Positions 2,944-21,836 of a DNA stretch of 64,000 nt are shown one piece after another. This stretch comes from Methylobacter sp. (GTDB taxonomy: Bacteria; Pseudomonadota; Gammaproteobacteria; Methylococcales; Methylomonadaceae), in assembly GCA_028712225.1 (NCBI GenBank), contig JAQTQN010000002.1:746-64745 (forward strand), given 5' to 3'. The position numbers and the translations under genes are program-made. Below the pieces are notes generated by a model. It ran no database searches and had not been told where the DNA came from. It worked only from the letters and a program-made list of their open reading frames with translations. Position 1 is the first letter of the stretch, and every line of letters begins with the position of its first letter.

Positions 2944-3942
2944 TTACAAACGACCACTAACGACAACATGGGTGTTTAATGTGAGGGGGGCGCCCTCCGC
3001 TGGGGCAATGGTTAGGGTAATATCTACTAACACACTGGTTACATTACCGGGGATTATTCTTTCAACACGAAATTGGCTGACATTCTCTGCGATGACGTAT
3101 TCGGTATAACTGGCGCCGTTGGCCGGTAAAATCGTCGGTAGCCGCTCCATCAGTGTCGTGCCATTCAGGTAGAAAACATGCGGGTCGAGCCAATCTTCAC
3201 CAGTAATGTTGTCTTCGTCGTCATCATTAACCGGATTTTCATCGATTTGGCTATCGAAATCATCATCAATGCCGCTGATACCGGCTTTGCCATCTCCAGT
3301 CATATCTTGATCAAGGTCTTCATCAGTACTGCCGTCGGCATCATCATCAAGCCCATTAATAATGTCTTCATTCTGTTGCCCGTCTTCATCATTATCAGTG
3401 GCAGATGATTCATCGATAAGGCCATCACCATCGTCATCGATACCGATAATTCCCGATGCTGCATCGTTAGTGTTGTCTTTATTCACATCTTCATCGATAC
3501 GTTCCGGTTCACCGGTATCCCGGCTGCCGTTATTGTTAATATCCAAAAAATCCATGTCATTATTGGCATCAGCCCAGCCATCTTTGTTGTTATCCAAAGT
3601 TATTTCGAGACTTACGGCTAACACGTTGCGTACGGATTCAGACCAGGCTGTAGTGGCGTTTTCGTTTAAAGGTAGCATTAGCATTTTTGACTGTTGTACA
3701 GCATTGACCATGCGCTCCATAGCAAAGCGTGCTTGTTGCAGGTTGTCGTGCTGAGCTTTAGTAACTAATTGCGCAGTAAGTGCGGTATTGACCACGCCGC
3801 TAATTGTCACTATTAACATGGCGGCAATAGTTAAAGCGATGAGTGTTTCCAGCAGGGTAAAGCCTTGTTGATTGATTGGCTTGGGGCCGGATTGTCGAAG
3901 CATGAACGAAATCAACTCGTTTTGTATTGGTTTGTGATTCAT
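2944..3942 (-). CDS. GspJ/PilW-like minor pseudopilin with a large acidic Asp-rich (Ca-binding-like) insertion
   Basis: Prepilin N-methylation motif QQG|FTLLETLIALTIAAML. A conserved ARFAMERM segment as in GspJ-type proteins. Residues about 117-252 are D/N/G-rich DxDxDG-type repeats. Confidence 0.75.
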   Translation of the reverse strand: MNHKPIQNELISFMLRQSGPKPINQQGFTLLETLIALTIAAMLIVTISGVVNTALTAQLVTKAQHDNLQQARFAMERMVNAVQQSKMLMLPLNENATTAWSESVRNVLAVSLEITLDNNKDGWADANNDMDFLDINNNGSRDTGEPERIDEDVNKDNTNDAASGIIGIDDDGDGLIDESSATDNDEDGQQNEDIINGLDDDADGSTDEDLDQDMTGDGKAGISGIDDDFDSQIDENPVNDDDEDNITGEDWLDPHVFYLNGTTLMERLPTILPANGASYTEYVIAENVSQFRVERIIPGNVTSVLVDITLTIAPAEGAPLTLNTHVVVSGRL

Positions 3943-4400
3943 CGGCTGATTAGTGTTTCTAAGGCTTGCCGGGTGCCTTCAGTTTCTACTCGCAGCCAAA
4001 GTAAAGTGGCTGTTGAGCCTGTATAGGGATCGTTATCATTATCGGTATTGGCATCAGTTACAGTAAACGGAGTGGTATCGCCATCATACAAAGACAAATA
4101 CACCAGACTGCGATTGCTAGTACCAGCCGCATCGGAATAAGTGCTGATTGTCGTGTTATTTCCAGCGTCTTTAGCAGCGACTAACAGGTTGATAAACGTT
4201 TCGGATTGCAAACGCTCCATTTTGTTAACACGCAGATAGTGTTGGGTGGTCAGCGATTGATGGATATTGGCACTAAGCAAGCCGGTGCTTAAGGAATCCA
4301 GTGCGGGAACTAAGGCGATGCTGATAAGCATGGCAGCAACCAACACTTCGATATAAGAGAAGCCTTGTTGTCTGAAATCAGAAAGCGTGGGGGAGGGCAC
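3939..4400 (-). CDS. GspI-like minor pseudopilin
   Basis: Prepilin motif QQG|FSYIEVLVAAMLISIAL. 153 aa. 4-nt overlap with the downstream pseudopilin gene. Confidence 0.7.
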   Translation of the reverse strand: MPSPTLSDFRQQGFSYIEVLVAAMLISIALVPALDSLSTGLLSANIHQSLTTQHYLRVNKMERLQSETFINLLVAAKDAGNNTTISTYSDAAGTSNRSLVYLSLYDGDTTPFTVTDANTDNDNDPYTGSTATLLWLRVETEGTRQALETLISR

Positions 4401-4406
4401 AGTTGT

Positions 4407-4967
4407 TTACTGGATAGTTACGCGGCCTGTCATCGGCGCAATGGACAGAATTCGTTGCTGATTTTTATAAGCCAAAGTAATGGTGGCGCTGGTGAGCATA
4501 TAGTCTCTACCAGAATTGTTGAACTTCGGTACGCCATTAGTGTTGAAAGCCAGCAAGGATGTACTGCTGAAACCACCGCTAAAAGCAAAGCTGACACTGA
4601 CCAAACTAACGTCGGCAGTGCGGCTGTCTGCATTTAATGCAATGGTATATAACTTTTTATCGATGGGATGGTAAACGGTGTAAGTTGGGGTTGCTGCAGG
4701 CAGGCTATAAACACGTAATTGGTTGTTTGCGGTGTCTGCATTGATGCCGTGAGGGATGTTGGTTTTGATCGCTTCGGCCCTGGCAAAACGAAGAGCAGAG
4801 GCAAATTCTTCGGCGGCGGTATCGAGTTTACTGAAGTCAGCAGATAAGTCGGGTACCGCCACAGCAGCGACGATACCCAGGATGATTATCACGATCATTA
4901 TCTCGATAAAGCTAAAACCGGCTTGGCGCATTACAGATTTTGCGGGTAAGTCAAAAACCGGCGGCAA
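4407..4967 (-). CDS. GspH/FimT-like minor pseudopilin
   Basis: Prepilin motif QAG|FSFIEIMIVIIILGIVAA followed by the LDTAAEEFASALRFARAEAIK segment typical of the GspH/FimT family. Confidence 0.75.
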   Translation of the reverse strand: MPPVFDLPAKSVMRQAGFSFIEIMIVIIILGIVAAVAVPDLSADFSKLDTAAEEFASALRFARAEAIKTNIPHGINADTANNQLRVYSLPAATPTYTVYHPIDKKLYTIALNADSRTADVSLVSVSFAFSGGFSSTSLLAFNTNGVPKFNNSGRDYMLTSATITLAYKNQQRILSIAPMTGRVTIQ

Positions 4968-4969
4968 TC

Positions 4970-5536
4970 TTAATATTTATCGTAACCAAGGCCACTGCTG
5001 TCGAGAGTGGTATTGTTAATGATGATTTTTCCGGTTTTATTATCGTATTTCCAACCGCCTGTTGTACCGTCGCCAACCATAGCCAGATTACCGGCTGTCA
5101 CTATAGTCACTGTGGATACATTGGTAATAGGATCGGCCGGTATCGTGGGATTTTTCAGGTATGGGCCAAATTTATAAGTAGCATCACTGGTCGAGCAAGC
5201 TTTACCATCTGCCCCACTATATAAGCCTAGTTGATCCTGAAGAGCTGCTTGAGTATCAGCTGCTCCGGTACCTGCTGTACCACTGTTTGGACAAGTGGCA
5301 CCGGAGGAGGCGACTGCGGCGGGATATTTTCCGTGTTGCTGATAGTACAAATCAATCGCTGAACGTAAATTAGAGAGCGTGCTCTTGGCCGCAGATAATT
5401 TGGCATCATCGGTTGACGAGGCAAATTGCGGCACCACAATTGCTGCCAGAATCGCCAAAATAATGACCACAATTAACAGTTCCACTAATGTGAAACCCTT
5501 AATAGCATGTCGCTTAATAGTAAAACTGGATTGCAT
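4970..5536 (-). CDS. GspG-like major (pseudo)pilin
   Basis: Motif IKG|FTLVELLIVVIILAILAAIVVPQF is near-identical to the T2SS GspG N-terminus. It is the first pilin gene after the platform gene. At 188 aa it is larger than a canonical GspG. Confidence 0.8.
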   Translation of the reverse strand: MQSSFTIKRHAIKGFTLVELLIVVIILAILAAIVVPQFASSTDDAKLSAAKSTLSNLRSAIDLYYQQHGKYPAAVASSGATCPNSGTAGTGAADTQAALQDQLGLYSGADGKACSTSDATYKFGPYLKNPTIPADPITNVSTVTIVTAGNLAMVGDGTTGGWKYDNKTGKIIINNTTLDSSGLGYDKY

Positions 5537-5607: not shown

Positions 5608-6720
5608 TTAGTGAACTGCATGCGATAGTTTGAAAATCGGTAAGATTAACGAACTCACCAAAATTCCCACTACTGCGCCCATAACCAACAACATTACCGG
5701 CTCAATGGCCTTGGTAACTAACTTTAGCAGCTTCTCTAAATCCTGCTGGAAATAGTCTGCGATACGTTCACTAACCATCGACAGGTTTCCAGTGGCTTCG
5801 CCCGTGCTAATCATTTGCTGCACTATCGGCGGAATAAATGTTGAGTTATTGAAGCCATGCGCAAGCGTACGTCCTTGGGTGACATTATTAAGCAAGCCAT
5901 CAATGAATGCATTGAAGCCCAGATTTTTTACGACCCCTTTAGCCAAGCCAAGTGCATCCACCAAATTAACGCCATTTTTTAAAGACAACGACAAAATACG
6001 CATGGTTTGGATTAAATAAATCTTGATGAAAATATTTTTTAAAACGGGAGCATGTAGCTTGAGATGATCGGCTATGTGCTGCCCTTGGCTACTGTGCAGC
6101 CAAGCTGTCATAAGGCCAATTATTCCTGTTATGCCTGGCAACAGCAGCCACCAGTAATTCGTAATAAGTTTACTGGTGGACATCAAAAAAATCGTCGTGA
6201 TCGGCAGTTGATCTTGAATGGACGTAAACAAATCGCCGAATTTAGGGAACACCACGGCAAGTATAAAAACGACCATACCAAACGAGAACAACATCAAAAA
6301 CGCCGGGTAGGAAATAGCAGAAAGCACTGTACTGGTGAGTGTTTCGCGTTGTTTTTCCATTTGCACCAGATGTTCGAGAATTCGCCTGATATAACCGCCG
6401 CTTTCGCTGGCAGCAATCAAACTGACGTAGGTCGTTGAAAATATTTCCGGATGATCAGCCATCGCCGAAGAAAAGGTTTTACCTTCGCTGATGGCATCGC
6501 TTAAGTCACTAATTACTTTTTTTAACGTCGCATTTTCTGTTTGCTTAGCCAGCACGGTAAGGCTAGTGTGCAAATCACTGCCGGTTTCCAACATCATGGC
6601 TAATTGTTCTATAAAAAACATGCGATCTTTGTTGGCTACTTTTTTACTCGTAGAGGACGATAAAGTGAATGACCGCGCTGCTTTGACCCGAGGATTGGTG
6701 ATATTTGTTTGCAGTGCCAT
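5608..6720 (-). CDS. GspF/PilC-family inner-membrane platform protein
   Basis: 370 aa with two T2SSF-type repeats (FSSAMADHPEIF... and FNNSTFIPPIVQQMISTGEATGNL) and three TM segments. Confidence 0.9.
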   Translation of the reverse strand: MALQTNITNPRVKAARSFTLSSSTSKKVANKDRMFFIEQLAMMLETGSDLHTSLTVLAKQTENATLKKVISDLSDAISEGKTFSSAMADHPEIFSTTYVSLIAASESGGYIRRILEHLVQMEKQRETLTSTVLSAISYPAFLMLFSFGMVVFILAVVFPKFGDLFTSIQDQLPITTIFLMSTSKLITNYWWLLLPGITGIIGLMTAWLHSSQGQHIADHLKLHAPVLKNIFIKIYLIQTMRILSLSLKNGVNLVDALGLAKGVVKNLGFNAFIDGLLNNVTQGRTLAHGFNNSTFIPPIVQQMISTGEATGNLSMVSERIADYFQQDLEKLLKLVTKAIEPVMLLVMGAVVGILVSSLILPIFKLSHAVH

Positions 6721-6749: not shown

Positions 6750-8801
6750 TTATTCATAGGAAACAACTCGCGAAACTTCTTCTATGGTGGTTTTGCCTTG
6801 TAAAACGCGTTCCATTCCATCGTCGAACAACGTTTTCATGCCGGTAAGTTTGACATAATTGGCTAGTTCATCCTGAGACGGGCTGGTGACCATTAATTTT
6901 TGCAGTCCTGAATTTACGTTAAGTATTTCGTGGGTTGCCATACGGCCTTTATAACCGGAATCGTAGCAAATCGGGCAACCCCGTCCTTTTAACAATCGAA
7001 CCTGGCCTTTGTCTTGCCAGCCATATTTGTTGATTTCTTCGGGGCCCGCTACGTAGCTGGTTTTACATTCCTGGCAAATTGTCCGCACCAAGCGCTGGGC
7101 AATAACGCCGATCAATGATGACGACAGTAAATAAGGTTCGACACCCATTTCTATTAATCTGGCGATCGCTCCGGTACTTTCGTTGGTATGTAACGTGGAC
7201 AGTACCAAATGTCCGGTCAGTGCGGCTTGTACGGCGATTTCGGCGGTTTCCTTTTCTCTGATTTCCCCGATCATGACAATATCGGGATCTTGCCTGAGCA
7301 CATGTTTTAAGATTTTGGCGAAGGTTAAGCCGATCATGTCCTTGACTTGGTTTTGGTTGACTATATCTACCTGATATTCAACCGGGTCTTCGATGGTTAC
7401 GATACTTTTTTCAATGGAATTCAGGTAGTTGATGGCGGCGTAAAGTGTGGTGGTTTTGCCGCTGCCTGTTGGGCCGGTAACTAATATCAAACCATGACTA
7501 CGTTTAAGTAATCTGATGAAAGAGGCCTGATTTTCAAGACTCATGTCCAATTTATCAATATCTAATAAACTTTTGTTTTTATCGAGGACGCGGAGCACGA
7601 TTTTTTCGCCGAAGATGCCTGGCAAGGAACTAAATCGTAAATCCACCACGCGGCCTTGGGTATTGACTTGAATACGTCCGTCTTGAGGCAGCCGACGCTC
7701 GGAAATATCTAAGTTGGCCATAACTTTAAGTCTTGAAATCAGCGCCGGATACATATCTATCGACGGATTCATTACTTCGTAAAGAACCCCGTCAATGCGA
7801 AAGCGAATGCGGCTTTTTTTTCGGGCCGGTTCGATATGAATATCGCTGGCGCCATCACGAATAGCTCGTTGAATCAGCGCATTAATCAGATTGATGACCG
7901 GGCTGCCGCTGGATAGTTCATCGATAGTGGCATAGTCTTCGGAAATTTGGCTGGCAACTACTTCAAAGTCTTCTTCCAAATCGCTTAAATAATCGGCGAC
8001 ATTAAGATTGTCGGCGCTGGAGGAATCATTAAATTGACGAACAATATCTTCGTTTTTTGCCAGTACCGGCTTGATGGCTAAACCGGTGCGATGTTTTATT
8101 TCATCAAGCGCCCTTAGATCTTGAGGATCGCTGGTGGCAATAAATAAACGTTTGTTAACTTTAAATAAGGGCAACACCTTAAGACGCTGGCAAATGTCTT
8201 TATCAATCAACTTAACAGTGCTGGGATCCCAAAGTCCTTGCCGCAAGTAAATATAAGGAATGCCTAGCTGTTTGCCGAGTACTTTTAATAAGTCTATTTC
8301 CGAGACCCAGCCTTTTTCTATTAGGATGGCTCCCAAGCGCTTGCCGGTTGAGCTTTGTAATTGGTAGGCCTTGTCGATCTTGTCCAAAGTCACCAGGTTT
8401 TCAGCAACTAACATGTCACCGAGTCGTTGATGTTGCAGAGGGACTGAGGTCGGCTGCAAGGGGGTGGCTGCACCCAAATTGTCACGGTTTACTATATGGA
8501 TATATTTGATCACCTCGGTGATGTTAAACACGTCCAAAATAATGGCATTGGCGTTAACAATAGTTAGCGTACCGCCTTTTTCCAATAACAAGGTACGCCA
8601 ATTTAACAGCAAATCTAAGACCTGGCTGCTGACTGTGGGGACATGGACAAAATCAATAATCAGCCTGGTTTCACTTGCCGCTATACAGTTTTCTACGGCA
8701 GTTTCCAGTGCCTTCAGGATGAGCGTATCAGCCAATGAGCCGGAAGGTGCCAGATAAGTGTCTATGCCGATACGGCTGCGGGTAATTTCAGGCATGGACA
8801 A
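6750..8801 (-). CDS. GspE/MshE-family secretion/pilus ATPase with an N-terminal STAS-like domain and an MshEN (c-di-GMP-binding type) domain
   Basis: Walker A GPTGSGKTT, Asp/His boxes and a C-terminal CxxC...CPxC tetracysteine. Residues 126-178 carry two tandem RLGxx(L/I/V)2xxG(L/I/V)2xxxxLxxxLxxQ-type motifs. Residues 1-105 resemble SpoIIAA/STAS. Confidence 0.9.
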   Translation of the reverse strand: MSMPEITRSRIGIDTYLAPSGSLADTLILKALETAVENCIAASETRLIIDFVHVPTVSSQVLDLLLNWRTLLLEKGGTLTIVNANAIILDVFNITEVIKYIHIVNRDNLGAATPLQPTSVPLQHQRLGDMLVAENLVTLDKIDKAYQLQSSTGKRLGAILIEKGWVSEIDLLKVLGKQLGIPYIYLRQGLWDPSTVKLIDKDICQRLKVLPLFKVNKRLFIATSDPQDLRALDEIKHRTGLAIKPVLAKNEDIVRQFNDSSSADNLNVADYLSDLEEDFEVVASQISEDYATIDELSSGSPVINLINALIQRAIRDGASDIHIEPARKKSRIRFRIDGVLYEVMNPSIDMYPALISRLKVMANLDISERRLPQDGRIQVNTQGRVVDLRFSSLPGIFGEKIVLRVLDKNKSLLDIDKLDMSLENQASFIRLLKRSHGLILVTGPTGSGKTTTLYAAINYLNSIEKSIVTIEDPVEYQVDIVNQNQVKDMIGLTFAKILKHVLRQDPDIVMIGEIREKETAEIAVQAALTGHLVLSTLHTNESTGAIARLIEMGVEPYLLSSSLIGVIAQRLVRTICQECKTSYVAGPEEINKYGWQDKGQVRLLKGRGCPICYDSGYKGRMATHEILNVNSGLQKLMVTSPSQDELANYVKLTGMKTLFDDGMERVLQGKTTIEEVSRVVSYE

Positions 8802-8858: not shown

Positions 8859-11012
8859 TCAGAAAGGTTCGGGCTTGCCGATTCCATATCCCTGAACATA
8901 ATCGACGCCGATTTTTTTTAATTCAGCAAGAATGTCTTTATTTTCGACGAATTCTGCAATAGTTTTAAGCCCCATTACTTGACCAATTTGGTTAATAGCT
9001 TGCACCATCGCGTGATCAATCTTGTTATCGAGTATGGTTTTAACAAAATAGCCATCTATTTTTAGATAGTCGACCGGCAGGTTTTTTAAATAGGTAAACG
9101 AGCTCATGCCGCTGCCGAAATCGTCTAAAGAAAACTGACAGCCTATTTTTTTTACCGCCTGCATAAACTCTATGGCTTGAGCTAGGTTAGAGACGGCAAC
9201 TGTTTCGGTAATTTCCAGGCAAATACTGGCGGGAGGTAAGCCGCTGCTTAGAACTTGGTCGATCAAGTATTGAAGAAAACCCTGCTCGCAAAACGCCTGT
9301 CCGGACAGATTGATAGAGCAACTCAAGGTACTGTTAGGATTTTCCGCATAAATAGCAGCCATCTTGGTTAATGCGGTTTTTACCACCCAGCGATCGAGTT
9401 TGGTTATTAATCCGTAGCGCTCCGCGGCAGGCAAAAACCGAATCGGCGGCACGATATTGCCATGCTCATCTTTAAGGCGAATCAGTAATTCGTAGTGTTC
9501 CTCCGGAGCGTTCTCATTCAAAGACAAAATACGCTGGCGATACAGTTCAAAACGCTCGTCCGCCAATGCTTGATTGATTCGGCTCACCCATTGAGTTTGA
9601 TCCTCATGGAGCAATACATCTTGGTCGGATGTGCTGTAAATATGTACACGGTTGCCGCCTTTTTCTTTAGCCATGCGGCAAGCCAAATCGGCGGCGCTGA
9701 GTAGTTCGGAAATATTTTTTGCCGCTGGATCAATCCCGACCACGCCGATACTTAAAGCGATGTCGTACATTTTATGTTCGTAGACAAAGCGGAACTGGTT
9801 GATCATCTGCCTGATTGATTCTGCTTTTTGTTTGGCTTGATCTAATGAACAATCATTCAATAATACGGCAAATTCATCGCCATTAAGGCGAGCGATCAGG
9901 TTGGTGTCAGTCAGTTCCTTCTTAATCAGGGCGCCGAATTGAATCAATAACTTATCTCCGGCTTTTGGCCCTGATGCATCATTGACTACTTTAAACTGAT
10001 CAATATCCAAAAAGAGTAACGAGTAGGTTTTACCTTCGTTTTGCACCTGTTTAAAAGCACATTGCAATTTTTCATGAAAGCCCTTGCGATTTAGCAGTTC
10101 TGTCAGGGTGTCACGTCTAGATCTAATTAGTGTAGCGGCCTCGATTGCCAGTATTTCAGCTAGCTTTCTATCGCTATTGGTAAAGTCTTTGTCAGTAAGG
10201 GTATTAACCATTATGAGAAGGCCGGCTAAATTACCGCTTATTTTTAATACTGGGGCCGCAATAATTTTGTAGGGGATTTTAATGTTAGCGTCGGTCCAGT
10301 CGGTGTCGGTATCACGGTTAATAACCAGGGTTTCACTGTTGGCTTTCATCCAGCGCCACAACGGCCCTTGTAAAGTATTTAAAATTAACTCTATGTCAAT
10401 ATCGGCAGTCTTGATTCCCACATGATGAATGACAATGTTTTGTTCTGGAACAAATAGGGCAATCAGATCGGCGTCTAAATAATCAGTGCAATTGCTGAGT
10501 AAGTCGTTCAAAGCATGGACTTCATTTTTAGATGACAGGGCGTGATGGCTATCATCTAAACCATAGAGTAAATTTAACTCTTCATAGCGTACCCCCAGTT
10601 CTTCAGCCATGCCGGATAGGCTAAGGCCGGTAATGTAATCTTCGGCTATGCATGCGGCGATGGCCTGTAATATTTGGGTAAGGCGTTGTTTTTGTTCGGC
10701 ACTTATCTGAGTAAGTGATTGATTTAATATGGCAGCTAACCAAAATGTCTGTTGATTGGCGGCCGTGTTAAAACTTTTTAGGATTAGTGATTTACTTTCC
10801 GGTAATGCCACAAAATCGTGGTCTGCGACCAACGTCGTCCAATTGAGCGGTTGCGCTGTCAACCAGGTGTCTAAAGCGGCAAGCCCTGATGAATTAATGT
10901 TAACAGGGCGTCCTGAGTCGTCGAATAGCGTCATAGAGCATTCACACTCAGCAACTGTTGCCAAGAAAGGCATAAATCTTTGCAGATTAATTGAGCTAAT
11001 CCTTACGTACAT
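8859..11012 (-). CDS. GAF-like / GGDEF (NGDEF variant) / EAL (ELL variant) c-di-GMP turnover protein
   Basis: RLNGDEF at aa 375-381. EAL-domain signatures are YELLIR, EITE, DDFGSG, KIDG, AEFVE and QGYGIGKP. Confidence 0.9.
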   Translation of the reverse strand: MYVRISSINLQRFMPFLATVAECECSMTLFDDSGRPVNINSSGLAALDTWLTAQPLNWTTLVADHDFVALPESKSLILKSFNTAANQQTFWLAAILNQSLTQISAEQKQRLTQILQAIAACIAEDYITGLSLSGMAEELGVRYEELNLLYGLDDSHHALSSKNEVHALNDLLSNCTDYLDADLIALFVPEQNIVIHHVGIKTADIDIELILNTLQGPLWRWMKANSETLVINRDTDTDWTDANIKIPYKIIAAPVLKISGNLAGLLIMVNTLTDKDFTNSDRKLAEILAIEAATLIRSRRDTLTELLNRKGFHEKLQCAFKQVQNEGKTYSLLFLDIDQFKVVNDASGPKAGDKLLIQFGALIKKELTDTNLIARLNGDEFAVLLNDCSLDQAKQKAESIRQMINQFRFVYEHKMYDIALSIGVVGIDPAAKNISELLSAADLACRMAKEKGGNRVHIYSTSDQDVLLHEDQTQWVSRINQALADERFELYRQRILSLNENAPEEHYELLIRLKDEHGNIVPPIRFLPAAERYGLITKLDRWVVKTALTKMAAIYAENPNSTLSCSINLSGQAFCEQGFLQYLIDQVLSSGLPPASICLEITETVAVSNLAQAIEFMQAVKKIGCQFSLDDFGSGMSSFTYLKNLPVDYLKIDGYFVKTILDNKIDHAMVQAINQIGQVMGLKTIAEFVENKDILAELKKIGVDYVQGYGIGKPEPF

Positions 11013-11015
11013 ATG

Positions 11016-11390
11016 TCACGTCCCAACACTGCTAAGATAATCATTAATCCGGCCAAGTAGGCGCCTCATGCTGAGCGGTTTTTCAAGCATTTCAATGTTG
11101 TTCTGCTGTTCTACCCAGATACGAATATCCCGATCCGTTCTGGAGGTCATGATTAGCAGTAAACAATTCAAGTCCGAATAATTACGCTGAACGGTTTCGC
11201 ACAGTTCAATACCACCCATTTTGGGCATTTGTATATCCGTAACTATTACGTCAGGATGTTCTTGTTCAATTAAGGAAAGTGCCAATTCACCATTTAATGC
11301 CGTAAAAACCTGCAAGCCCGCCTTTTCCAGAAATTGTTTTAACACCAGGGCGACATGCGGTTCATCGTCGACGATTAGAATCTTGTTCAT
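11016..11390 (-). CDS. Single-domain CheY-like response regulator
   Basis: 124 aa with DDEP, the phospho-acceptor context VIVTDIQMP and a conserved K (EKPL). No output domain. Confidence 0.9.
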   Translation of the reverse strand: MNKILIVDDEPHVALVLKQFLEKAGLQVFTALNGELALSLIEQEHPDVIVTDIQMPKMGGIELCETVQRNYSDLNCLLLIMTSRTDRDIRIWVEQQNNIEMLEKPLSMRRLLGRINDYLSSVGT

Positions 11391-11402: not shown

Positions 11403-13217
11403 TCAAATAATGGTTGAGGTTTTGGGCAGTTCTATGCTGAAGGTGCTGCCTATATCCAGCACGCTTTCCAGCCTGATTTTGCCGTTATGTAACTCGATAA
11501 TTTCTTTGGCCAGCGCCAAACCCAAGCCATGACCATTTTTTTGCACTATGTTGTCGTCACTAGAGCGATAAAATTTTTCAAAAATGTGCTTCTGATCAGA
11601 ATCGGAAATACCAAAACCGGTATCGCTGATACGAATAGTGATGAGTTGATCGGTTTCTTCTGCTAGTAAACTGACATTGCCATTGGGTTTGTTATATTTA
11701 ACGGCGTTGGTCAATAAGTTATTAATAGCTATTCTTAATAGCTCTTTATCTACTTGAATGTTGGCTAATGTTCTGGGTACCTGCAGATTAAAATCGATAT
11801 TATTCTCTCTGCCGCTAAGTGCTACGTTGTTAAAAGTATCTTCAAGAAACTCGGCAAACTTAACGCGCTGGCGGTTAATGACAATGTTGCCGGTTTCAAT
11901 TTTACTGATATTTAATAAATTGGAGATCAGTGCTGCTAATCGCTCCACTTCATCATTGATAATATTGACAGCATTAATTCTTTCTTCAATGGTAACGTCG
12001 GATTCGTCTAACAATGATTCTGCATACAGGTGAATGACATTGAGAGGAGACTTTAATTCATGTGCGACATGGTTGATAAAGTCATGTCGAGCTTGGTCTG
12101 CTAGAATTTCTTGCGTCTTGTCATGAAAAACGACGAGTGTGCCGCAAATGGTTTCTACCTCTTTGGGGGCAAATAATGGATACGCGCTGACGGCGATGGT
12201 TTTGTCTGGATTGTTAAGTGGATTAAATTCCACTGTGTCGGAACGTTGTAAGCGATGCCCAGAGTTTTGATACTTTGCCAGCAAATCAATGACGTGACTG
12301 TTTTTGCACCAAGTCTGCACACTCTTACCGATAACGCCATCTAAGGATCCGCCAAGCAGGGGTATCAATTTAGAATTTGCAAAGGTGGCTATGCCCGTTT
12401 CATCCATCACCAAAATAGCGTCCGGTAAGGATTGCAATGCGGATTCTATGCGCCGACGTTGGTAAGACAGCGCTAAGGTAGTCGCTTGGGTTTTGGCATT
12501 TTGCCGACTTAATTGCTCAAAACGCCGATCAATCAGGGTCATGAACAACTTAAAATTGCCCATGAAATCATGAAAGTTACTGGCAGTGTCGTTTTCGACT
12601 TCCTGGTTTTGCTTTTTCAGCACGCTATTCATTTCCAGATTAGCTTGGCGCAATGGCTGAAATTCACGGCGAATCAGCCAATAGGCCAGAGGCACCAGTA
12701 AGAAAACGGGCAAAATCAGTTGTGCAAAAAAAGGTAATTTTTGCACATCAAATTCAAAAGTCGGCTGTAAGTAACCGATGCGAATAAATCCGGTTAATGT
12801 GCCTTGAGAAAGAATCGGAGCGCGAAACTCCAGTAAGTTTTTGCCATCGCTGCTGAGCACATCTTCACTTGCCCAGCGTGTTTGATTATCTAAAGACACG
12901 GCAGGAATGGCAGCCTTACCTGAGGAGCTGACAGCTAGCGGCTGATTGTTGGGATCAACAATGGCTGCATAGGCAAAATCAGGGGTGTTGTGGCTGTTAT
13001 TAAACAGCTCCAAAATGGCATTACTGCCTTGCTCAGGAAGTAGTTGTGGCAAAGACAAGCTGGATAACAAGCGGACATTATGGCGGCCGGCAATTTTTAT
13101 CGCCTGATCGCGCATTTGATGGTTATGCACAAACAGTTGTGTAGCGCTCACGATGATAGCCAGTAAGGTGGCGAAAATCATGACCATTCCAAAGCGTTCG
13201 CTGGCTATTTTTTTCAT
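11403..13217 (-). CDS. Sensor histidine kinase (two TM segments flanking a periplasmic domain, then PAS, HisKA and HATPase_c)
   Basis: H-box HELKSPLN, N-box NAVKYN, G-boxes DTGFGI and GHGLGLA. Two TM helices flank a periplasmic segment of about 140 aa. Confidence 0.9.
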   Translation of the reverse strand: MKKIASERFGMVMIFATLLAIIVSATQLFVHNHQMRDQAIKIAGRHNVRLLSSLSLPQLLPEQGSNAILELFNNSHNTPDFAYAAIVDPNNQPLAVSSSGKAAIPAVSLDNQTRWASEDVLSSDGKNLLEFRAPILSQGTLTGFIRIGYLQPTFEFDVQKLPFFAQLILPVFLLVPLAYWLIRREFQPLRQANLEMNSVLKKQNQEVENDTASNFHDFMGNFKLFMTLIDRRFEQLSRQNAKTQATTLALSYQRRRIESALQSLPDAILVMDETGIATFANSKLIPLLGGSLDGVIGKSVQTWCKNSHVIDLLAKYQNSGHRLQRSDTVEFNPLNNPDKTIAVSAYPLFAPKEVETICGTLVVFHDKTQEILADQARHDFINHVAHELKSPLNVIHLYAESLLDESDVTIEERINAVNIINDEVERLAALISNLLNISKIETGNIVINRQRVKFAEFLEDTFNNVALSGRENNIDFNLQVPRTLANIQVDKELLRIAINNLLTNAVKYNKPNGNVSLLAEETDQLITIRISDTGFGISDSDQKHIFEKFYRSSDDNIVQKNGHGLGLALAKEIIELHNGKIRLESVLDIGSTFSIELPKTSTII

Positions 13218-13266: not shown

Positions 13267-14109
13267 TCATTTGCTAAAAAGCAATCGTAATACTTCTAAA
13301 ATATTATGGGTGGCGTCTTGTTTAATGGGGTCAATATCGGCCTCAGTTAACTCCGTTAACTGTAAAGCGATGGGATCAAATTGCGGAATGCCATAGCCTT
13401 TTTTGGCGCTTTCATATTGCTGAACTAGAACACTGGCAATGTGAATAATGGCTGCATCCAGTGCAAATTTATCGGCTGACCGTAAATCGGTGTGACTACC
13501 AACTGCTTCAATATGACTTTCCGGCAATTTCCAGGCTTTGAGAAGTTCACCGCCAACCTGAGCATAATCAAACCCCAATACATGCCTTTCTACCTGCTTA
13601 ACGGGTTTATTTTGTTGTTTGGCAAGGGTCAGTATCTCGGTGGTTTCATTGGGTAGTTTGCTATAAATAATTAACTGACCAATCCCATGCAGTAAGCCTG
13701 AGACAAATAAACGTTCGCTATCCAGCACGTTACAGCGCGCTGCTAATAGTCGTGCTGTAACTGCACAAAAGACGCTGTTAGTCCAAAACTCCTTCATGTT
13801 AATTAATTCATTTGGCACACCTTTAAACGACCTCACTACGGATACAGATAGCACCAAATCTTGTAGCTGCGAGAACCCCATGATGTTGATAGCTCTACTG
13901 AGGGTAGTGATTTCCTCGGCAAATCCAAAAAATGAACTGTTGGTAATGCGCAAAACACGCGCAGTAATATTGGCATCCTGACTGACTACATCGGATACGT
14001 TGTTAAGAGTCGACGCCGGATTATTAATAACGTCACGAATCCGCAGGTATATTTCCGGTAACGACATCAGATCATTTATGTCTAAAACCAGTTCTTGAGG
14101 TGTGGTCAT
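13267..14109 (-). CDS. HDOD domain protein
   Basis: 280 aa. The LPSLPEIYLRI-like N-terminus and the GLLHGIGQLI / HxxxG patterns are typical of the HDOD signalling domain. Confidence 0.8.
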   Translation of the reverse strand: MTTPQELVLDINDLMSLPEIYLRIRDVINNPASTLNNVSDVVSQDANITARVLRITNSSFFGFAEEITTLSRAINIMGFSQLQDLVLSVSVVRSFKGVPNELINMKEFWTNSVFCAVTARLLAARCNVLDSERLFVSGLLHGIGQLIIYSKLPNETTEILTLAKQQNKPVKQVERHVLGFDYAQVGGELLKAWKLPESHIEAVGSHTDLRSADKFALDAAIIHIASVLVQQYESAKKGYGIPQFDPIALQLTELTEADIDPIKQDATHNILEVLRLLFSK

Positions 14110-14295: not shown

Positions 14296-16329
14296 GTGCA
14301 AATGTTAACAATACGTAATCAAGGTTTTATTTTGCTGCCTGTGGTGCTGGCGATTACTCTGATTGCCGGCGTGGCATTTTTAATGAATCGTGACGGGGCA
14401 GGCAACGTCAATGGGTTGGCTGGAGAAATAGCCACAACACAAGCAGCGTATGTGGCTAGGGCAGGTATCAATCAAATGCTTTGGCAAGCCAATAATGCCA
14501 ACTGTACGGGTTACGTCAATGCTAGCAATGTCAATTTAGGAGGCTATAGCTATAGCGGCACGATTAACCCAACCAGTAATTCGCCGGTTAGTATCAGCGT
14601 AACAGCCAATAATGCCGAAGGGGCTGGCTATTCGATTAAGCGCGATAGGCTGAAAGTCTATCAGTCCACAGTGACCAAAACGCTGCAATTGGGCACTGAC
14701 GCAGGTAAAGATACCTATATAGGTAATCTTTGGAGCACTTACAACTATGGCGGTGGTGCTGACGATGATGTGTTGACTACTAAGATAGGCAGGCTTTATC
14801 GGCATCTATTAATCCAATTTGATTTATCCACTATTCCTAGCAATGCGCATATTGTCTCGGCAGAATTGCAGCTGTACCGGAAAACCGGTTCAGGTAAAGA
14901 CGCCATTAACGTGTACCGAATAAAGCAAGATTGGATTGAGGGTAGTAAAACCGGGAGCGGTACTGCCGATGGTGCGACGTGGAAAACGTTTAATGGTACT
15001 AACACCTGGGTTAATCCGGGCGGAGATTACGATCCGACGTTGATGGCTAGGTCTCAAGTTGACGCCGGTGTTAGCGGTGTTCATAGTTGGGAAATTGCGC
15101 CGTTAGTGCAAAGTTGGTTAACCGGCAAATACCCCAATTACGGCATGTTACTTAACGCGTCCGACTCGATCTCGGTTACCTTCGCCAGTAAGCAAGATAC
15201 GACTCTCGCCAATCGCCCCAGGCTGGTGATTACTTATAACTGTGAATGCGGATTAAGCTGTACTACCTGCATTAGCGGCAATTTTCGTGATGAATTTAGC
15301 GTCAGTGGCGATTACTCCGGCAACAAAGGTAGCTTAGCCTGGACCGGTAATTGGCTGGAAACCGGTGAGAGCGATGGCGCCGGCGCAGGCAAATTATCAG
15401 TACTGGCAGCCACACAATGCACCACTGGTAACTGCCTTAAAATTCGTAAAGATACAGCGACAATAATGAGTGTTAGTCGTGAACTTAAACTCGCCAATGC
15501 TGTCACTGCAAGCTTAAGCTTTAGTTACCGCCGTACTGTTGTCTTAATGCCAGGCGGCGGCGCAATTACCCTGGAAATATCCAAAGACGGCGGCGCGACT
15601 TATACAGCGCTTAAATCTTATGCACTCGATGCAATTGATTATGTGCCGGCGTCAGAAACAATCGATATTACCGGATATATCGCAGCAAAAACTCGGATAC
15701 GCTTTATTACTGCCGGGGCTTCTTATCAAAGTAATATGCATATCGATAATATCGATGTTACTGTCAGTTGTACCCCACCACCGTCAAGCTCGCACTCCGT
15801 AATCCTTAATACTATTGCGGATACTAATCTTTCTGAGGTAAATGCCGGAACAAACTATGGTTCATCGAACCTGATATGGGTAGGAACTAATTCTTTTTTA
15901 AAAAAATATAAGGGCTTATTAAAATTTAATGTCAGTAGCATTCCAGCTGGGGCCATAGTCACCTCTGCCAAGCTGCGTTTGTTTGCCTCTACTTTTTCAG
16001 GCACTGGCTCTATGAGCATTGGTATCTATAAAGTGATTGCCAACTGGAGTGAATCGACAGCGACGTGGACCAACTTTAGCAGTATCACTAATTACAATTT
16101 AATCCAGCGGGCTGTTACAACAGCGCCACTAGCGAGTCCCGTCGTAGTTGAATGGGCTTTGCCCACTAGTTTGATTAATGAATGGCGCGATAGTGTACCA
16201 ACACCGAATTATGGCCTGGCATTAGTTTATGAAAGCATTCTAAATAGTGTTTATCTTGATTTTGCCAGTAAAGAAAACGCCGATACCAACTTGCGCCCTC
16301 AATTGGTCATTGATTACACCCTCCCTTAA
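14296..16329 (+). CDS. Pilin-like-anchored protein (PilX/GspK-type hydrophobic N-terminus lacking Glu5) with two DNRLRE-type (CBM-like) domains
   Basis: N-terminus NQG|FILLPVVLAITLIAGVAFL. Two repeats match the pattern D.Y...N.G....L.V....R.L..FDLS.IP..A.I..A.L.L......W.E...TW and end in ANRPRLVITY and TNLRPQLVIDY. The start may be GTG 14296 or ATG 14302. Confidence 0.7.
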   Translation: MQMLTIRNQGFILLPVVLAITLIAGVAFLMNRDGAGNVNGLAGEIATTQAAYVARAGINQMLWQANNANCTGYVNASNVNLGGYSYSGTINPTSNSPVSISVTANNAEGAGYSIKRDRLKVYQSTVTKTLQLGTDAGKDTYIGNLWSTYNYGGGADDDVLTTKIGRLYRHLLIQFDLSTIPSNAHIVSAELQLYRKTGSGKDAINVYRIKQDWIEGSKTGSGTADGATWKTFNGTNTWVNPGGDYDPTLMARSQVDAGVSGVHSWEIAPLVQSWLTGKYPNYGMLLNASDSISVTFASKQDTTLANRPRLVITYNCECGLSCTTCISGNFRDEFSVSGDYSGNKGSLAWTGNWLETGESDGAGAGKLSVLAATQCTTGNCLKIRKDTATIMSVSRELKLANAVTASLSFSYRRTVVLMPGGGAITLEISKDGGATYTALKSYALDAIDYVPASETIDITGYIAAKTRIRFITAGASYQSNMHIDNIDVTVSCTPPPSSSHSVILNTIADTNLSEVNAGTNYGSSNLIWVGTNSFLKKYKGLLKFNVSSIPAGAIVTSAKLRLFASTFSGTGSMSIGIYKVIANWSESTATWTNFSSITNYNLIQRAVTTAPLASPVVVEWALPTSLINEWRDSVPTPNYGLALVYESILNSVYLDFASKENADTNLRPQLVIDYTLP

Positions 16330-16406: not shown

Positions 16407-17540
16407 ATGTTTAATTTCAGAAAGTCACAACCAACTATCGGTTTCGATTTGGGTCTTGAAAAATTAAACATGGTGCAAATTACCAGCGTCTTAGGGCGCC
16501 CAAAAATTCAGGCGGCGCTATCTGATTACCACGATGCCAGCTACGATTTGCTGCTTGCTGAGCCTGAGCGAATGAAAGCATTAATTAAACGATCGTTTTC
16601 ATCTGTGCCGTTTGTCGGACGCACTGTGGTGTCTTCCATGCCCAATACCAAGCTGCAATTGATGTTTGTTAATTACCAGTGCAAATCAGGGCAAAATGAA
16701 ATTGAAGCCTTGTTGACTGCAGTTTCTAATCGATTGAATAGCGACTTGCATGATTATGTTGTCGACTATGTGCCAATCACCCCCATGATAGAAGAGCATC
16801 AAATGCGCATGGCATTGGTAGCCCTGGTTAAGCGAGATGATGTTGAAAACTATCTGGATTTGTTAAAAAAATGCGGATTGAAAGTGGCGGCTTTAGAAAT
16901 CGGTCCCATTGCAATCAGGCGTTTAATTTCTTCAATGGCTGGCGAATCTGAGCCTGAAAAAACATTAGTCATAAATTTCGGTACTCAAAAGAGTTATTTA
17001 ACCGTGCTATGGCATGGCGATATTTTACTGGATCGACCGTTAAATTTTGGATTGGATACGATTCTGCAGGCGCTGGGACAAGCGTTGGATATTGAGCCGA
17101 AATTAGCGCTCAAGATGATCCATGATTATGGTTTATCACAAAAGGTGATTGCCGATACATTTGATAGCATGGATGAGACGGACATTGATACCGACACGTT
17201 CGACATCAGGAATGAGTCGAACGATGAGGAAATGATAAAAATAATTTGCGATGTATTAACTCCATCATTCACACAATTGGCGGCGGAAATTAGGGAAGTC
17301 TTACTTTACATCGCATCAGAAACCCGCGGTGGTGCTGTAGAACATATTTACTTACTGGGCAGCTTGGCGCGATTAAGAGGTTTGGAGCAAGTGATTGACA
17401 GACTTATATCCATTCCAGCCACGATACTGAATCCATTTTATGGTTTTTCCGTAGAGGGTATGTTGGAGGACGCTCGCGATTTGGGGCCGTTGTCAGGTAT
17501 TGCCGTTGCCACGGGTTTAGCTTTACGAAGTGTAAAATAA
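16407..17540 (+). CDS. pilM: PilM/MshI-like actin-fold pilus assembly protein
   Basis: 377 aa. It has the expected N-terminal IGFDLG and central LEIGPIAIRR segments, and it sits directly upstream of PilN/O-like genes. Confidence 0.8.
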   Translation: MFNFRKSQPTIGFDLGLEKLNMVQITSVLGRPKIQAALSDYHDASYDLLLAEPERMKALIKRSFSSVPFVGRTVVSSMPNTKLQLMFVNYQCKSGQNEIEALLTAVSNRLNSDLHDYVVDYVPITPMIEEHQMRMALVALVKRDDVENYLDLLKKCGLKVAALEIGPIAIRRLISSMAGESEPEKTLVINFGTQKSYLTVLWHGDILLDRPLNFGLDTILQALGQALDIEPKLALKMIHDYGLSQKVIADTFDSMDETDIDTDTFDIRNESNDEEMIKIICDVLTPSFTQLAAEIREVLLYIASETRGGAVEHIYLLGSLARLRGLEQVIDRLISIPATILNPFYGFSVEGMLEDARDLGPLSGIAVATGLALRSVK

Positions 17541-17542
17541 TC

Positions 17543-18199
17543 ATGCATGAATTAGATTTGATTCCGGCGGATTATCGAGAGCGTGAACGTATTCAGCAAA
17601 AGTGTACGACTTTTATCGGCATTTTGATCGTGCTGGTCGTTGCGCTTGCTGGATTGAGGTTTGTATTACAGCAAAAAGTGGATACGCTGCAATTGCAAAT
17701 TCAAGCACTGGAAGACGGCAAAAAAATCAAGCTTGAGCAGCAGCAAAAATTTAATGCATTGCTGGCGCAAGAACGCATGCTGAATAAGCGCTTGGAGGTT
17801 TTTAACGGTTTACGCGGCGGGCTGTCTGCCAAACAATTATTTCTCGCAATTGATCGCGTGATGGATGGTGATGTCTGGTTTAACGAATGGAAATTGCTAA
17901 GAACGAGTGAGATTAACGCAGTAAAAACAATACACTCCACCTCAGGCCTCGTCATTCCCGAAAGCGAAAACAGTGCCGGTCAAGCTCAAGCTTGGCAACT
18001 AAGCACTCGTATGGAAATTACCGGTCAGGCTTTGGATCATAGCAAGTTGGCGGCATTTATTAGTCGATTGATGCAGCAACCTGAAGTTCAAGATGTCAAA
18101 GTATTAAACACTAACCTGAAAACCTATCTTTCAAACCAGGTGATTGATTTTAATATGGTTGTTATCATCAATAATCACATGCATGAGGATCATGATTAA
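17543..18199 (+). CDS. PilN-like bitopic assembly protein
   Basis: Short cytoplasmic N-terminus (DLIP), one TM helix, a coiled coil and a periplasmic domain. Position after pilM. Confidence 0.65.
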   Translation: MHELDLIPADYRERERIQQKCTTFIGILIVLVVALAGLRFVLQQKVDTLQLQIQALEDGKKIKLEQQQKFNALLAQERMLNKRLEVFNGLRGGLSAKQLFLAIDRVMDGDVWFNEWKLLRTSEINAVKTIHSTSGLVIPESENSAGQAQAWQLSTRMEITGQALDHSKLAAFISRLMQQPEVQDVKVLNTNLKTYLSNQVIDFNMVVIINNHMHEDHD

Positions 18200-18752
18200 G
18201 TATTTGCAGCAAGTTCAGCCGCAAACACTCTTGCTGCTGATGGGATCTATCATCTTATTAACGCTGCTGGCAGCGTATCTCTATGTTTTTAAAACTCCTT
18301 TAAATAGCTATCGACAAGCTCAGCAGGCGGTTGAGCTGCTGCAAAATGAAATAAACACGGGGATTTCGTTACCTAATCAATTGGCTGCTACGCAAAACAC
18401 TGTGTCGCAATTGGAGCAGCAACTGCATAGCTCAGCACTGTCTTTGCCGATTAACCAAAAAATTGTCCTTGTTATTGGTAAGTTGGATGAAATTTCTGCC
18501 ATACATAAAGTCAATTTGAACAGTGTTAAACCTGGCGAAGTCGCACAAGCTTTTATGTTTCAGGAGTTACCTTTCAATATTGAAATTAGCGGTTCTTATT
18601 TCACGTTGGTTAATTGGCTACATCAAGTAGAACAAGATCTGGGGCCAACTATTATTAAGGAATTTATCATGCATTCGGACGCCGCCAGCAGCAATGTCAG
18701 TATGAAATTAACGCTCGCGTCTTATTTGTTTACGGCCGAGGATAAACCGTGA
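18192..18752 (+). CDS. PilO/MshJ-like bitopic assembly protein
   Basis: One TM helix plus a coiled coil (LQNEI...VSQLEQQL). I prefer ATG 18192 (MIKYLQQ), which overlaps the pilN-like stop, over the track start at 18144. Confidence 0.6.
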   Translation: MIKYLQQVQPQTLLLLMGSIILLTLLAAYLYVFKTPLNSYRQAQQAVELLQNEINTGISLPNQLAATQNTVSQLEQQLHSSALSLPINQKIVLVIGKLDEISAIHKVNLNSVKPGEVAQAFMFQELPFNIEISGSYFTLVNWLHQVEQDLGPTIIKEFIMHSDAASSNVSMKLTLASYLFTAEDKP

Positions 18753-19132
18753 GAGGTTTATTTTGGGCTGTGTCGATTATCTATTCGATACTGAATCTAT
18801 GCCCATTGGCGTTGGCTACCGATGACAGCAAGAAATCGATTGCTGTGACAGTTCAACACGATCCGTTTAAAAAACCAGCCATGTTGCAGCTGCAGGCAGG
18901 TCAGTCAACTGTTAACTCCGAGCAGAACATTAATCCCGGTATCGCTAAGGCCCGACTTACCGCAACGCTCCGGGGTAAGGATCCAATGGTTATTTTGGAA
19001 GGTAAATCACTTAGATTAGGTGAGATGTTCGAAGGTTATCGCTTAGTTGAAATTAATGAACGCTCAGCTGTATTCCGCAAATACAAAAAACAAATCATAT
19101 TAAAAATAGATAATGCGGATGAAGCAAATTAA
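18749..19132 (+). CDS. Small secreted PilP/MshK-like protein
   Basis: 127 aa with a signal peptide. The C-terminal beta-rich segment VILEGKSLRLGEMFEGYRLVEINERSAVF resembles PilP/MshK/GspC HR domains. 4-nt overlap with the upstream gene. Confidence 0.45.
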   Translation: MRGLFWAVSIIYSILNLCPLALATDDSKKSIAVTVQHDPFKKPAMLQLQAGQSTVNSEQNINPGIAKARLTATLRGKDPMVILEGKSLRLGEMFEGYRLVEINERSAVFRKYKKQIILKIDNADEAN

Positions 19133-19136
19133 CGTA

Positions 19137-20471: not shown

Positions 20472-20979
20472 GGTGGGTTGAATCTGTAATCATGAGTAAA
20501 TGTTTCTCCCAAATTCGACCTAATTGATGAGTGGTAATGGGTCAAATATGTAACTTAGCATGAATATCAACGCCAAACTCCACCTTATTAATAAGCAGGC
20601 CAATGACAGTATCGTGCATCAAAACTGACTTGGAAAAACAAATGGTTTTCCTGGTCAATCGTTTGATCCAAGTGCGTAGATTCAAGTTTTTTCGTTCAAT
20701 TTTCTGGGTGTTCTGCTTGCCAACTTGATGTTTGGTAACGTCCAAGTGACGTTCATAAGCCCCCCAATCATCGGTGTACCCAAAGGGCATAAATAAACGG
20801 CTAATATTGAACGGTTCAAGCAATGCCTTCAGTTGCTTGAAAACGTCGTCTTTTCGCCGACCAAAGACCATAAGCCAGTATCCTACTGGTGGCATGGTCA
20901 ATGGTGCTTGTGCCCTTTGGGTATACCACAGCCAACGCGGCTCAGACTTCTTGCCCACATAAGACCATTGTTCGTCCAT
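20472..20979 (-). mobile_element. IS1-family element fragment (C-terminal transposase portion plus terminal end); the N-terminal part is missing
   Basis: The ORF 20542-20979 aligns by eye with the IS1 InsB C-terminus (DEQWSYVGKK..., QKIERKNLNLRTWIKRLTRKTICFSKS). The terminal 50 nt starting GGTGGG at 20472 are repeated at 32790. Confidence 0.7.
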
Positions 20980-21401: not shown

Positions 21402-21836
21402 ATGACAGCAAAACCAACCCCTTCTATTATTCATTACTTTTCAAGCATTAAAGACCCCAGAGTAAACAGGCAAAAGAAGCATCGACTACCAGATATTTTC
21501 TTTATCAGCATTTGCGCGATTATTTGTGGCGCTGATAACTGGGTGGCTGTTGAAGCATTTGGTCTAGCAAAAGAAGAGTGGTTCACTCAATTGCTCGGTT
21601 CAGAGCATGGTATACCTTCGCACAACACCTTTGGTGCAGTTTGTGAGGCCCTTGATGCCGACCAGTTTAGCGTCTGTTTTTCCCGCTGGGTTGCTGATTT
21701 AGCCAACATAACCGAAGGAGAAGTCATTGCTATTGATGGCAAATGCTTAAGACGCAGAATAGATAAAGCCTCAAAAAAAGCCGTCATTCATATGGTCAGC
21801 GCTTGGGCGCAACAAAATAATTTGGTTTTGGGCTAG
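21402..21836 (+). pseudogene. ISAs1-family transposase, N-terminal fragment only
   Basis: IKDPRVNRQKKHRLPDIFFISICAIICGADNWVAVEAFG is the DDE_Tnp_1-associated N-terminal domain of ISAs1/H-repeat proteins. The ORF stops at 144 aa, well short of the full length expected for this family (several hundred aa, from memory). Confidence 0.75.

Follow-up and report, generated by a model that had tools for sequence, protein, structure and literature searches.

We analysed a stretch of 64,000 nucleotides from a Methylobacter sp. assembly (GCA_028712225.1, contig JAQTQN010000002.1; this whole stretch is hereafter called the window). In it, a minus-strand gene encodes an ATPase in which a STAS domain, a type known mainly from switch proteins, is placed ahead of an MshEN module for the binding of c-di-GMP (cyclic dimeric GMP) and of a T2SSE catalytic domain. 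The gene product serves as the extension (assembly) ATPase in a type IV filament machine of a distinct and widely conserved kind. The features of the gene and of the cluster around it are collected in Table 1.

Table 1. Features of the ATPase gene and of its cluster, in window positions (ORF, open reading frame; pLDDT, predicted local distance difference test)
Feature	Position	Strand	Basis or remark
STAS-MshEN-T2SSE assembly ATPase gene	6750..8801	-	ORF; Pfam STAS, MshEN and T2SSE
STAS domain	8481..8795	-	Residues 1-105 (681-residue numbering); profile, model and fold matches
Flexible, poorly conserved STAS-MshEN linker	8427..8480	-	pLDDT 51-68, no predicted secondary structure
MshEN_N motif I, RLGDMLVAENLVTLDKIDKAYQLQ	8355..8426	-	Residues 126-149 of the 683-residue ORF
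MshEN_N motif II, RLGAILIEKGWVSEIDLLKVLGKQ	8268..8339	-	Residues 155-178
MshEN_C/N1 (GSPII) subdomain	8028..8267	-	Pfam MshEN PF05157, residues 179-258, 65.6 bits
N2 and catalytic T2SSE ATPase domain	6768..7910	-	Walker A GPTGSGKTT, tetracysteine motif
GAF-(degenerate GGDEF)-EAL protein, predicted c-di-GMP phosphodiesterase	8859..11012	-	Pfam; directly upstream of the ATPase
Single-domain response regulator	11016..11390	-	Pfam Response_reg
PAS histidine kinase	11403..13217	-	Pfam PAS, HisKA, HATPase_c
HDOD-domain protein, first gene of the minus-strand operon	13267..14109	-	Pfam HDOD, 203.6 bits; recurs in 8 loci
GspF/PilC platform protein	5608..6720	-	Pfam T2SSF; TIGR02120 GspF 281 bits, below the cut-off of 424
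Four pseudopilin genes	2944..5536	-	N_methyl, GspH and T2SSG matches; gene order conserved
GspG-like pseudopilin	4970-5536	-	
GspH-like pseudopilin	4407-4967	-	
Two minor pseudopilins	3939-4400 and 2944-3942	-	
Pilin-like protein with two CBM96/DNRLRE carbohydrate-binding modules	14296..16329	+	Pilin-type N-terminus G|FILLPVV
PilM, PilN, PilO, small gene in the PilP position, secretin	16407..20468	+	Pfam, NCBIfam

Boundaries and class of the ATPase

The ORF can be read from a TTG codon at 8801, which gives 683 amino acids, or from an ATG two codons further on, at 8795, which gives 681. Since the homologues all begin at that ATG (MPEITRS..., as in P0001), 8795 is the likely true start. The region 8268-8801, to which a preliminary description of this DNA had drawn attention, spans codons 1-178 of the minus-strand ORF 6750-8801; the residues quoted in that description were correct, in the 683-residue numbering. 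An antisense ORF of 97 amino acids within the STAS coding region (8464-8757, plus strand) was without support and was discarded as spurious. A scan for promoters and terminators returned the same counts as in shuffled sequence.

Pfam T2SSE matched residues 298-678 with 457 bits, in keeping with a PilT/GspE-like ATPase core that has Walker A/B motifs and Asp and His boxes. The Walker A motif and the motifs surrounding it are invariant across 71 relatives, and the tetracysteine motif (Cys574/577/607/610) is likewise invariant in the family alignment. This tetracysteine (zinc) motif marks the assembly ATPases as opposed to the retraction ATPases. By these class features, which are defined on sequence, the window protein is an MshE/PilB-type assembly ATPase. 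It scored 591 bits with TIGR02533 (GspE; equivalog cut-off 630.25) and 584 bits with TIGR02538 (PilB; equivalog cut-off 675.65), and judged by these scores it is an equivalog of neither GspE nor PilB.

Vibrio cholerae MshE, the PilB proteins of Myxococcus xanthus and Geobacter, and Thermus PilF share with the window ATPase the MshEN_N tandem motif, the N1, N2 and T2SSE regions and the tetracysteine motif. Compared with these proteins, the window ATPase has about 105 extra N-terminal residues, which form the STAS domain. It also differs from the MshE/PilB class in being encoded right after a dedicated phosphodiesterase, receiver and kinase. The nearest solved structures were those of M. xanthus and Geobacter PilB, Thermus PilF and GspE. 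All these matches begin at query residue 113 or later, and therefore none of the nearest solved relatives has a STAS cap.

The STAS domain and the tandem MshEN motif

Pfam STAS (PF01740) matched residues 31-104 of the ATPase with 32.5 bits (gathering score 22.6), and STAS_2 matched the N-terminus too, below its cut-off. A profile made from 42 N-termini of the family matched Bacillus subtilis SpoIIAA (1AUZ) with E=3.7e-9, and other antagonists ranked next. We also modelled the N-terminus with AlphaFold2, a check that the preliminary description had called for. The isolated residues 1-121 folded in the strand-helix order of a STAS domain with a mean pLDDT of 89.4 (above 95 at residues 11-100), and residues 11-100 remained above 90 in the full-length model. 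When the fold was compared with the PDB by Foldseek, 27 matches had E<=1e-3 and the top ones were all STAS domains, namely RsbV (6M36; template modelling (TM) score 0.83 on the target), SpoIIAA, TM1081, RsbS, MlaB, YtvA and SLC26. The TM scores to RsbV and SpoIIAA were 0.70-0.83, and the match to MlaB was weaker than these (about 0.5-0.6).

Pfam, the profile, AlphaFold2 and Foldseek thus agree with the earlier proposal that residues 1-105 have a STAS/SpoIIAA-like fold. Within the family, the STAS residues R8, G10, P17, D48, S57, G74, G75 and T93 are invariant or nearly so. Ser57 (Ser59 in ORF numbering; codon 8625-8627) opens helix 2 and aligns with Ser58 of SpoIIAA. A chance match or a decayed STAS remnant was rejected in view of the conservation across more than 100 species and of the confident fold. 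We concluded that the ATPase begins with a genuine STAS domain, flexibly linked to the c-di-GMP-binding MshEN module; the linker between the two differs in length and in sequence from one family member to another.

Next to this linker, the 53-residue NCBIfam model NF053729 ('c-di-GMP_motif') matched residues 126-178 from end to end with 59.6 bits (cut-off 38). Residues 126-184 aligned to residues 9-67 of V. cholerae MshE (5HTL, E=8.4e-10), and because this alignment is ungapped the 24+5+24 spacing is exact, with a spacer of 5 residues at 8340-8354. The two 24-residue motifs of MshEN consensus, 5 residues apart, that had been read from the DNA were therefore borne out. The same is true of the Asn that had been noticed in place of Gly in the first copy: Asn135 of the window ATPase stands at the position of MshE Gly18, which is position 10 of motif I. 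Motif I shows further deviations at the Leu pair that stacks on guanine (Leu17 to Ile and Leu21 to Tyr). The Gly18-equivalent of motif I, counted over 71 family members, is Gly in 45, Gln in 9, Asn in 7, Lys in 5, Glu in 3 and Ala in 1. Motif II keeps its Arg, Gly, Trp and Gln without variation across the family.

In the MshE motifs, a change of the middle Gly to Leu or Ile made binding considerably weaker (PMC5013675, Fig. 3d legend). The relaxed MshEN search pattern of the same paper permits [GAS] only at this position, and the Asn at position 10 of motif I falls outside it (PMC5013675). Geobacter PilB likewise has Asn at the MshE Gly18 position. Judged by the motifs, binding of c-di-GMP by members of the family is likely.

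Distribution of the family and the genes around it

The best 120 database relatives (identity down to 57%) came from Methylococcales and other Gammaproteobacteria, and almost all of them combine STAS, MshEN and T2SSE by precomputed Pfam annotation. Full-length identity is 57-86% in the family, the best named match being at 86%. The public names of these relatives are generic ('ATPase, T2SS/T4P/T4SS family' or 'PilB'). We scanned one genome per species with an alignment of residues 1-215, in which the pattern GxI[LIV][VI][DE]KGWV was required. STAS and MshEN_N are encoded as one stretch in at least 110 species genomes, a lower bound that is biased to the fused form. The STAS-MshEN-ATPase is thus a family and not a one-off. 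Carriers of the fusion include methanotrophs (Methyloglobulus, Crenothrix, Methylobacter and Methylomarinum), Woeseiaceae, Sedimenticolaceae (tubeworm and lucinid symbionts among them), Thiotrichaceae, Ectothiorhodospiraceae, Thiogranum, Zoogloea, Rhodocyclaceae and one Desulfobulbaceae. At least one carrier of the cluster is in culture, Zoogloea oryzae NBRC 102407 (locus L061), in which simple ORF calling recovered the ATPase only as an antisense shadow. A search of 1.84 billion representatives returned mostly N-terminal fragments of short contigs and gave no basis for counting fusions; the stand-alone STAS genes described below came to light in it. The search for homologues of the STAS domain alone gave one fragment, its word index being too coarse for a divergent query of 125 amino acids.

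Two relatives deviate from the common build. P0193 (673 aa) is a divergent member that keeps STAS and MshEN and has ATPase motifs that look degenerate by eye: GPVDTGKT, SVEERVEQ for TIEDPVEYQ, GDLPD for GEIRE, and no His box. Such changes suggest that it may be a catalytically dead paralogue. The gene call of P0150 (670 aa) joins a GGDEF-EAL protein directly to the STAS-MshEN N-terminus. Phosphodiesterase, STAS and ATPase may be naturally fused here, or the call, which comes from a short contig, may be an artefact of read-through or of a frameshift.

One lineage carries STAS as a gene of its own, 105-107 amino acids long (P0140, P0142 and P0155). At locus L005, the stand-alone STAS gene (1196-1530) sits between a GAF-HD-GYP gene and the MshEN-ATPase gene, which starts exactly at the RKLGEILL motif and has its own AGGAA ribosome-binding site. 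A second stand-alone gene occupies 82-420 of locus L006. Both loci have an in-frame stop (TAG or TAA) within the linker and an ATG 6-12 nt further on, and both STAS genes encode Gly at the phospho-Ser position. On this sequence evidence, the split form derives from a fused ancestor with both halves retained. The split form also indicates that the STAS domain can act in trans on the ATPase or on partners.

The gene order of the window recurs in distant relatives. By tblastn, 67 of the 71 loci that have at least 3 kb of upstream sequence carry a phosphodiesterase-type gene whose end lies less than 400 bp upstream of the STAS start; 56 of these genes are of the EAL type and 11 of the HD-GYP type. 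Among the 58 loci with at least 6 kb upstream, a kinase gene was observed in 56 and a receiver gene in 55. Shadow ORFs on the antisense strand of GC-rich loci (clusters c10, c12, c19, c21, c22, c26, c28 and c39) were discarded. The EAL and HD-GYP neighbours have a common GAF N-terminus (30% identity, E=3e-26), and in the 11 loci HD-GYP, behind this GAF domain, stands in for the whole GGDEF-EAL output.

In the neighbour protein of the window (8859-11012), the GGDEF site reads NGDEF and the EAL motifs are intact. The same pattern was observed in 57 orthologues, where the catalytic motifs of EAL are conserved and the GGDEF site drifts (for example, YLGEGRY and RLDADNF). As the EAL motifs are kept while GGDEF decays, c-di-GMP hydrolysis is the predicted conserved output of this neighbour. 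Some loci have an extra membrane GGDEF cyclase beside pilM. The N-terminus of the histidine kinase of the window has, by eye, two hydrophobic, transmembrane-like stretches. Locus L062 and two loci from Thiotrichaceae (L034 and L041) keep the pilus genes; in the two from Thiotrichaceae the phospho-Ser position is Asn.

The minus-strand operon is divergent from a plus-strand operon that runs from the CBM96 protein through PilM, PilN, PilO and the small gene to the secretin. Together, the two operons encode the parts of a machine: a GspF platform, GspG/H-like pseudopilins, a PilMNOP alignment complex, a short secretin and the pilin-like CBM96 protein. All components of the cluster scored below the NCBIfam equivalog cut-offs for the type II secretion system, the type IVa pilus and the mannose-sensitive haemagglutinin pilus, and this makes the machine a member of the type IV filament superfamily that is yet to be characterised. 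A fragment of an IS1-type transposase (20542-20979, minus strand) and a DDE_Tnp_1-associated gene (21402-21836, plus strand) adjoin the secretin gene and mark the end of the cluster.

The CBM96 protein has orthologues at other loci (L004, 15898-18549; L044, 15625-19326; L038, 16018-18369, the last with a PilX_N N-terminus). In most loci its gene comes after the fourth pseudopilin, and some versions exceed 1200 amino acids and have YWTD repeats of the low-density-lipoprotein receptor type. The protein has the look of a giant tip pilin that binds carbohydrate, or of a substrate. Among the top-ranked matches of a text search, no paper linked CBM96/DNRLRE to pili.

Further along the window, a large polysaccharide-modification cluster (33482-59719) contains several GT4 glycosyltransferases, a UDP-GlcNAc 2-epimerase, an RmlD-like reductase, a methyltransferase, a sulfotransferase, 2-oxoglutarate-Fe(II) oxygenases, an Asp/Asn beta-hydroxylase, a sugar-transfer ATP-grasp protein and an asparagine synthase. 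One ORF in it (53943-54833) gave a sub-threshold HPr-kinase-like match. A link of this cluster to the CBM96 pilin would be speculation. The region 30277-32541 (minus strand) encodes two neighbouring DUF1538 membrane proteins, followed by an ORF of 120 amino acids (30681-31043) and a CBS-domain protein.

Possible roles of the STAS domain

As a whole, these observations are best explained, in our tentative view, by a c-di-GMP-gated motor that carries a STAS docking or regulatory domain working mostly independently of phosphorylation. Binding of c-di-GMP promotes the function of MshE (PMC5013675; review PMC11656802), and c-di-GMP on the MshEN module of the present family would license filament assembly as it does in V. 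cholerae MshE. The level of c-di-GMP that the motor sees would be set by the upstream GAF-(GGDEF)-EAL or GAF-HD-GYP enzyme together with the kinase and the receiver of the operon. STAS would serve as a protein-protein docking or regulatory module, independent of phosphorylation in most members, in the manner of MlaB on MlaF. Its conserved canonical face, made up of the strand 3-helix 2 loop and the beginning of helix 2, would couple the motor to the dedicated signalling module; the candidate partner is either the phosphodiesterase or the receiver in its phosphorylated form. In this way, the motor would combine c-di-GMP as a local signal with a second signal borne by a protein. The preliminary description had already put forward a second input to be integrated with c-di-GMP; this idea is reasonable and is strengthened by the conserved signalling operon, though the second input itself stays a proposal.

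The MlaB-MlaF pair provides a parallel for a STAS domain devoted to a transport ATPase, and it shares the conserved Ser/Thr at the start of helix 2. There, the STAS protein binds and controls the ATPase, and the Thr at the interface is conserved and not demonstrably phosphorylated (PMC7367683). The two systems differ in that MlaF is an ABC ATPase whereas the window protein belongs to the PilT/GspE-like hexamers, and in that MlaB is a separate protein whereas the window STAS is fused.

The docking proposal can be extended to a self-contained local circuit made up of the kinase, the receiver, the GAF-phosphodiesterase and the STAS-MshEN-ATPase. In such a circuit, STAS would physically bring onto the motor either the dedicated phosphodiesterase or the receiver in its phosphorylated state, and the motor would respond to a private c-di-GMP signal instead of the global pool. 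We regard this extension as unlikely. If true, the gating would be of an undescribed kind for type IV filament motors, and STAS would gain a new role that is independent of phosphorylation.

Four observations weigh against a c-di-GMP-gated motor with a phosphorylation-independent docking domain. First, the Methylococcales clade to which the window protein belongs has Asn, Gln, Glu or Lys at the motif-I Gly. With this Gly replaced, the c-di-GMP affinity of the window protein, as predicted from its motifs, is uncertain. Second, the full-length AlphaFold2 model of the ATPase has a predicted TM score (pTM) of 0.45, which leaves the packing of STAS against the other domains undefined. Third, the loci L034, L041 and L062 have the STAS-ATPase without an upstream phosphodiesterase gene (in L062 the kinase gene is directly upstream). 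The partner may thus be something other than the phosphodiesterase or the receiver, and room is left for a STAS partner within the machine. Fourth, the conservation of Ser57 at about 90% is compatible with phosphoregulation too.

The last point leads to classical partner switching, in which an RsbW/SpoIIAB-type kinase encoded elsewhere would phosphorylate Ser57, a PP2C phosphatase would reverse this, and the phosphorylation state would set the engagement of a partner or the release of the motor. The phosphorylatable antagonists RsbV and SpoIIAA are the best sequence and fold matches of the window domain, and Ser57, with which helix 2 begins, takes the place of the phospho-acceptor Ser58 of SpoIIAA in the alignment. 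This position is nearly invariant in the alignment of 71 relatives (Ser in 65, Gly in 6). A STAS partner-switching system also governs the type-IV-pilus-dependent motility of hormogonia in Nostoc, where the STAS protein HmpV of HmpU-W is the output acting on this behaviour through an undefined effector (PMC6495340).

However, we observed that some members of the family lack this Ser. In 76 aligned ATPases, taken from the loci analysed and mostly from species genomes, Ser was present in 67, Gly in 5, Asn in 2, and Pro and Leu in 1 each, and Thr, Asp or Glu occurred in none of the 76. Some members in which the Ser is replaced have the operon unchanged; the Gly-bearing locus L002 is an example. 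Moreover, STAS domains in general conserve a Ser/Thr at this position, and so does MlaB, for which phosphorylation is not demonstrated (PMC7367683).

The preliminary description had suggested looking for a partner kinase or phosphatase. In about 80 neighbourhoods (up to 10 kb on each side), no RsbW/SpoIIAB-type kinase or PP2C phosphatase gene family recurred, nor did any family beyond the cluster genes described above, and none of the scanned ORFs of the window had a Pfam match to either. The operon histidine kinase was considered as an RsbW-like partner and rejected, as its weak HATPase_c_2 matches are generic cross-matches of GHKL domains. With TIGR00377 (ant_ant_sig), the window STAS scored 25.2 bits against a cut-off of 53.45. 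By this score and by the cognate genes looked for nearby, the window STAS fails as a classical partner-switching antagonist. It also differs from SpoIIAA and RsbV in being fused to a motor ATPase and not free. HmpV, in turn, is free and has its own kinase and phosphatase, and no fusion to PilB is reported for it. Phosphorylation-dependent partner switching, which had been offered earlier as one form of the second input, is thus weakened by the replacement of Ser in about 10% of the members and by the negative search for a kinase or phosphatase in the neighbourhoods and among the scanned ORFs of the window, and we consider it improbable.

Alternatively, STAS could be a structural or cis-acting element that carries no separate signal. 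It would dock the motor (onto PilM or GspF, or in the packing of the hexamer) or mask MshEN/N1 until c-di-GMP binds. The persistence of the STAS-ATPase in the three loci without an upstream phosphodiesterase gene accords with such a role, as does the observation that the N1 region of related ATPases contacts platform proteins (review PMC11656802). Other lineages have also enlarged the N-terminus; Thermus PilF, for example, has three MshEN-like domains. On the other hand, the flexible and variable linker and the viability of the split-gene form speak against a rigid, structural element, and signalling is suggested by the genes for kinase, receiver and phosphodiesterase, which are linked to the ATPase gene almost everywhere. 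We find a structural or cis-acting role of this kind doubtful.

A sensor function for a small ligand (a nucleotide such as GTP, or an anion), adding a metabolic input, is very improbable: although some STAS domains are proposed to bind ions (PMC7367683, discussion) and SLC26 STAS domains and YtvA are among the fold matches, no ligand-binding motif was identified, and it is antagonists which bind proteins, and not transporter STAS domains, that match the domain best in sequence and fold.

We also compared the fusion with what has been described for MshEN proteins and for PilB control. The fusions listed in the founding MshEN paper comprise REC, HD-GYP, CheA, CheX, cyclases and Ser/Thr kinases, with ATPase and glycosyltransferase outputs (PMC5013675); STAS is absent from its text and supplement (PMC5013675). 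A review of PilB control from 2024 does not mention a STAS-type domain and calls the contribution of MshEN/N1 'poorly understood' (PMC11656802). In the full text of open-access papers and bioRxiv, we found no description of a STAS-MshEN-ATPase fusion, in line with the earlier statement that no characterised STAS-GspE fusion was known. The preliminary description had also reckoned with an architecture that is common and already described. Common it is, with at least 110 species, but a description was not found.

The STAS-MshEN-ATPase family is thus widespread, conserved and uncharacterised, and its link to local c-di-GMP signalling is attractive but unproven. The practical payoff is modest pending an interaction or a phenotype. 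The family touches two open questions, the specificity of c-di-GMP signals and the on/off switching of PilB/GspE-type motors. It offers for them a conserved, compact set of genetically linked parts, namely the sensor kinase, the receiver and the phosphodiesterase, together with a STAS domain and c-di-GMP receptor on the motor itself, with a natural split variant at hand. Its carriers include ecologically important methanotrophs, Woeseiaceae of sediments and chemosynthetic, sulfur-oxidising symbionts. With this family, STAS domains would gain roles beyond the control of sigma factors and transporters, and local c-di-GMP signalling at a pilus or secretion motor would become open to direct tests.

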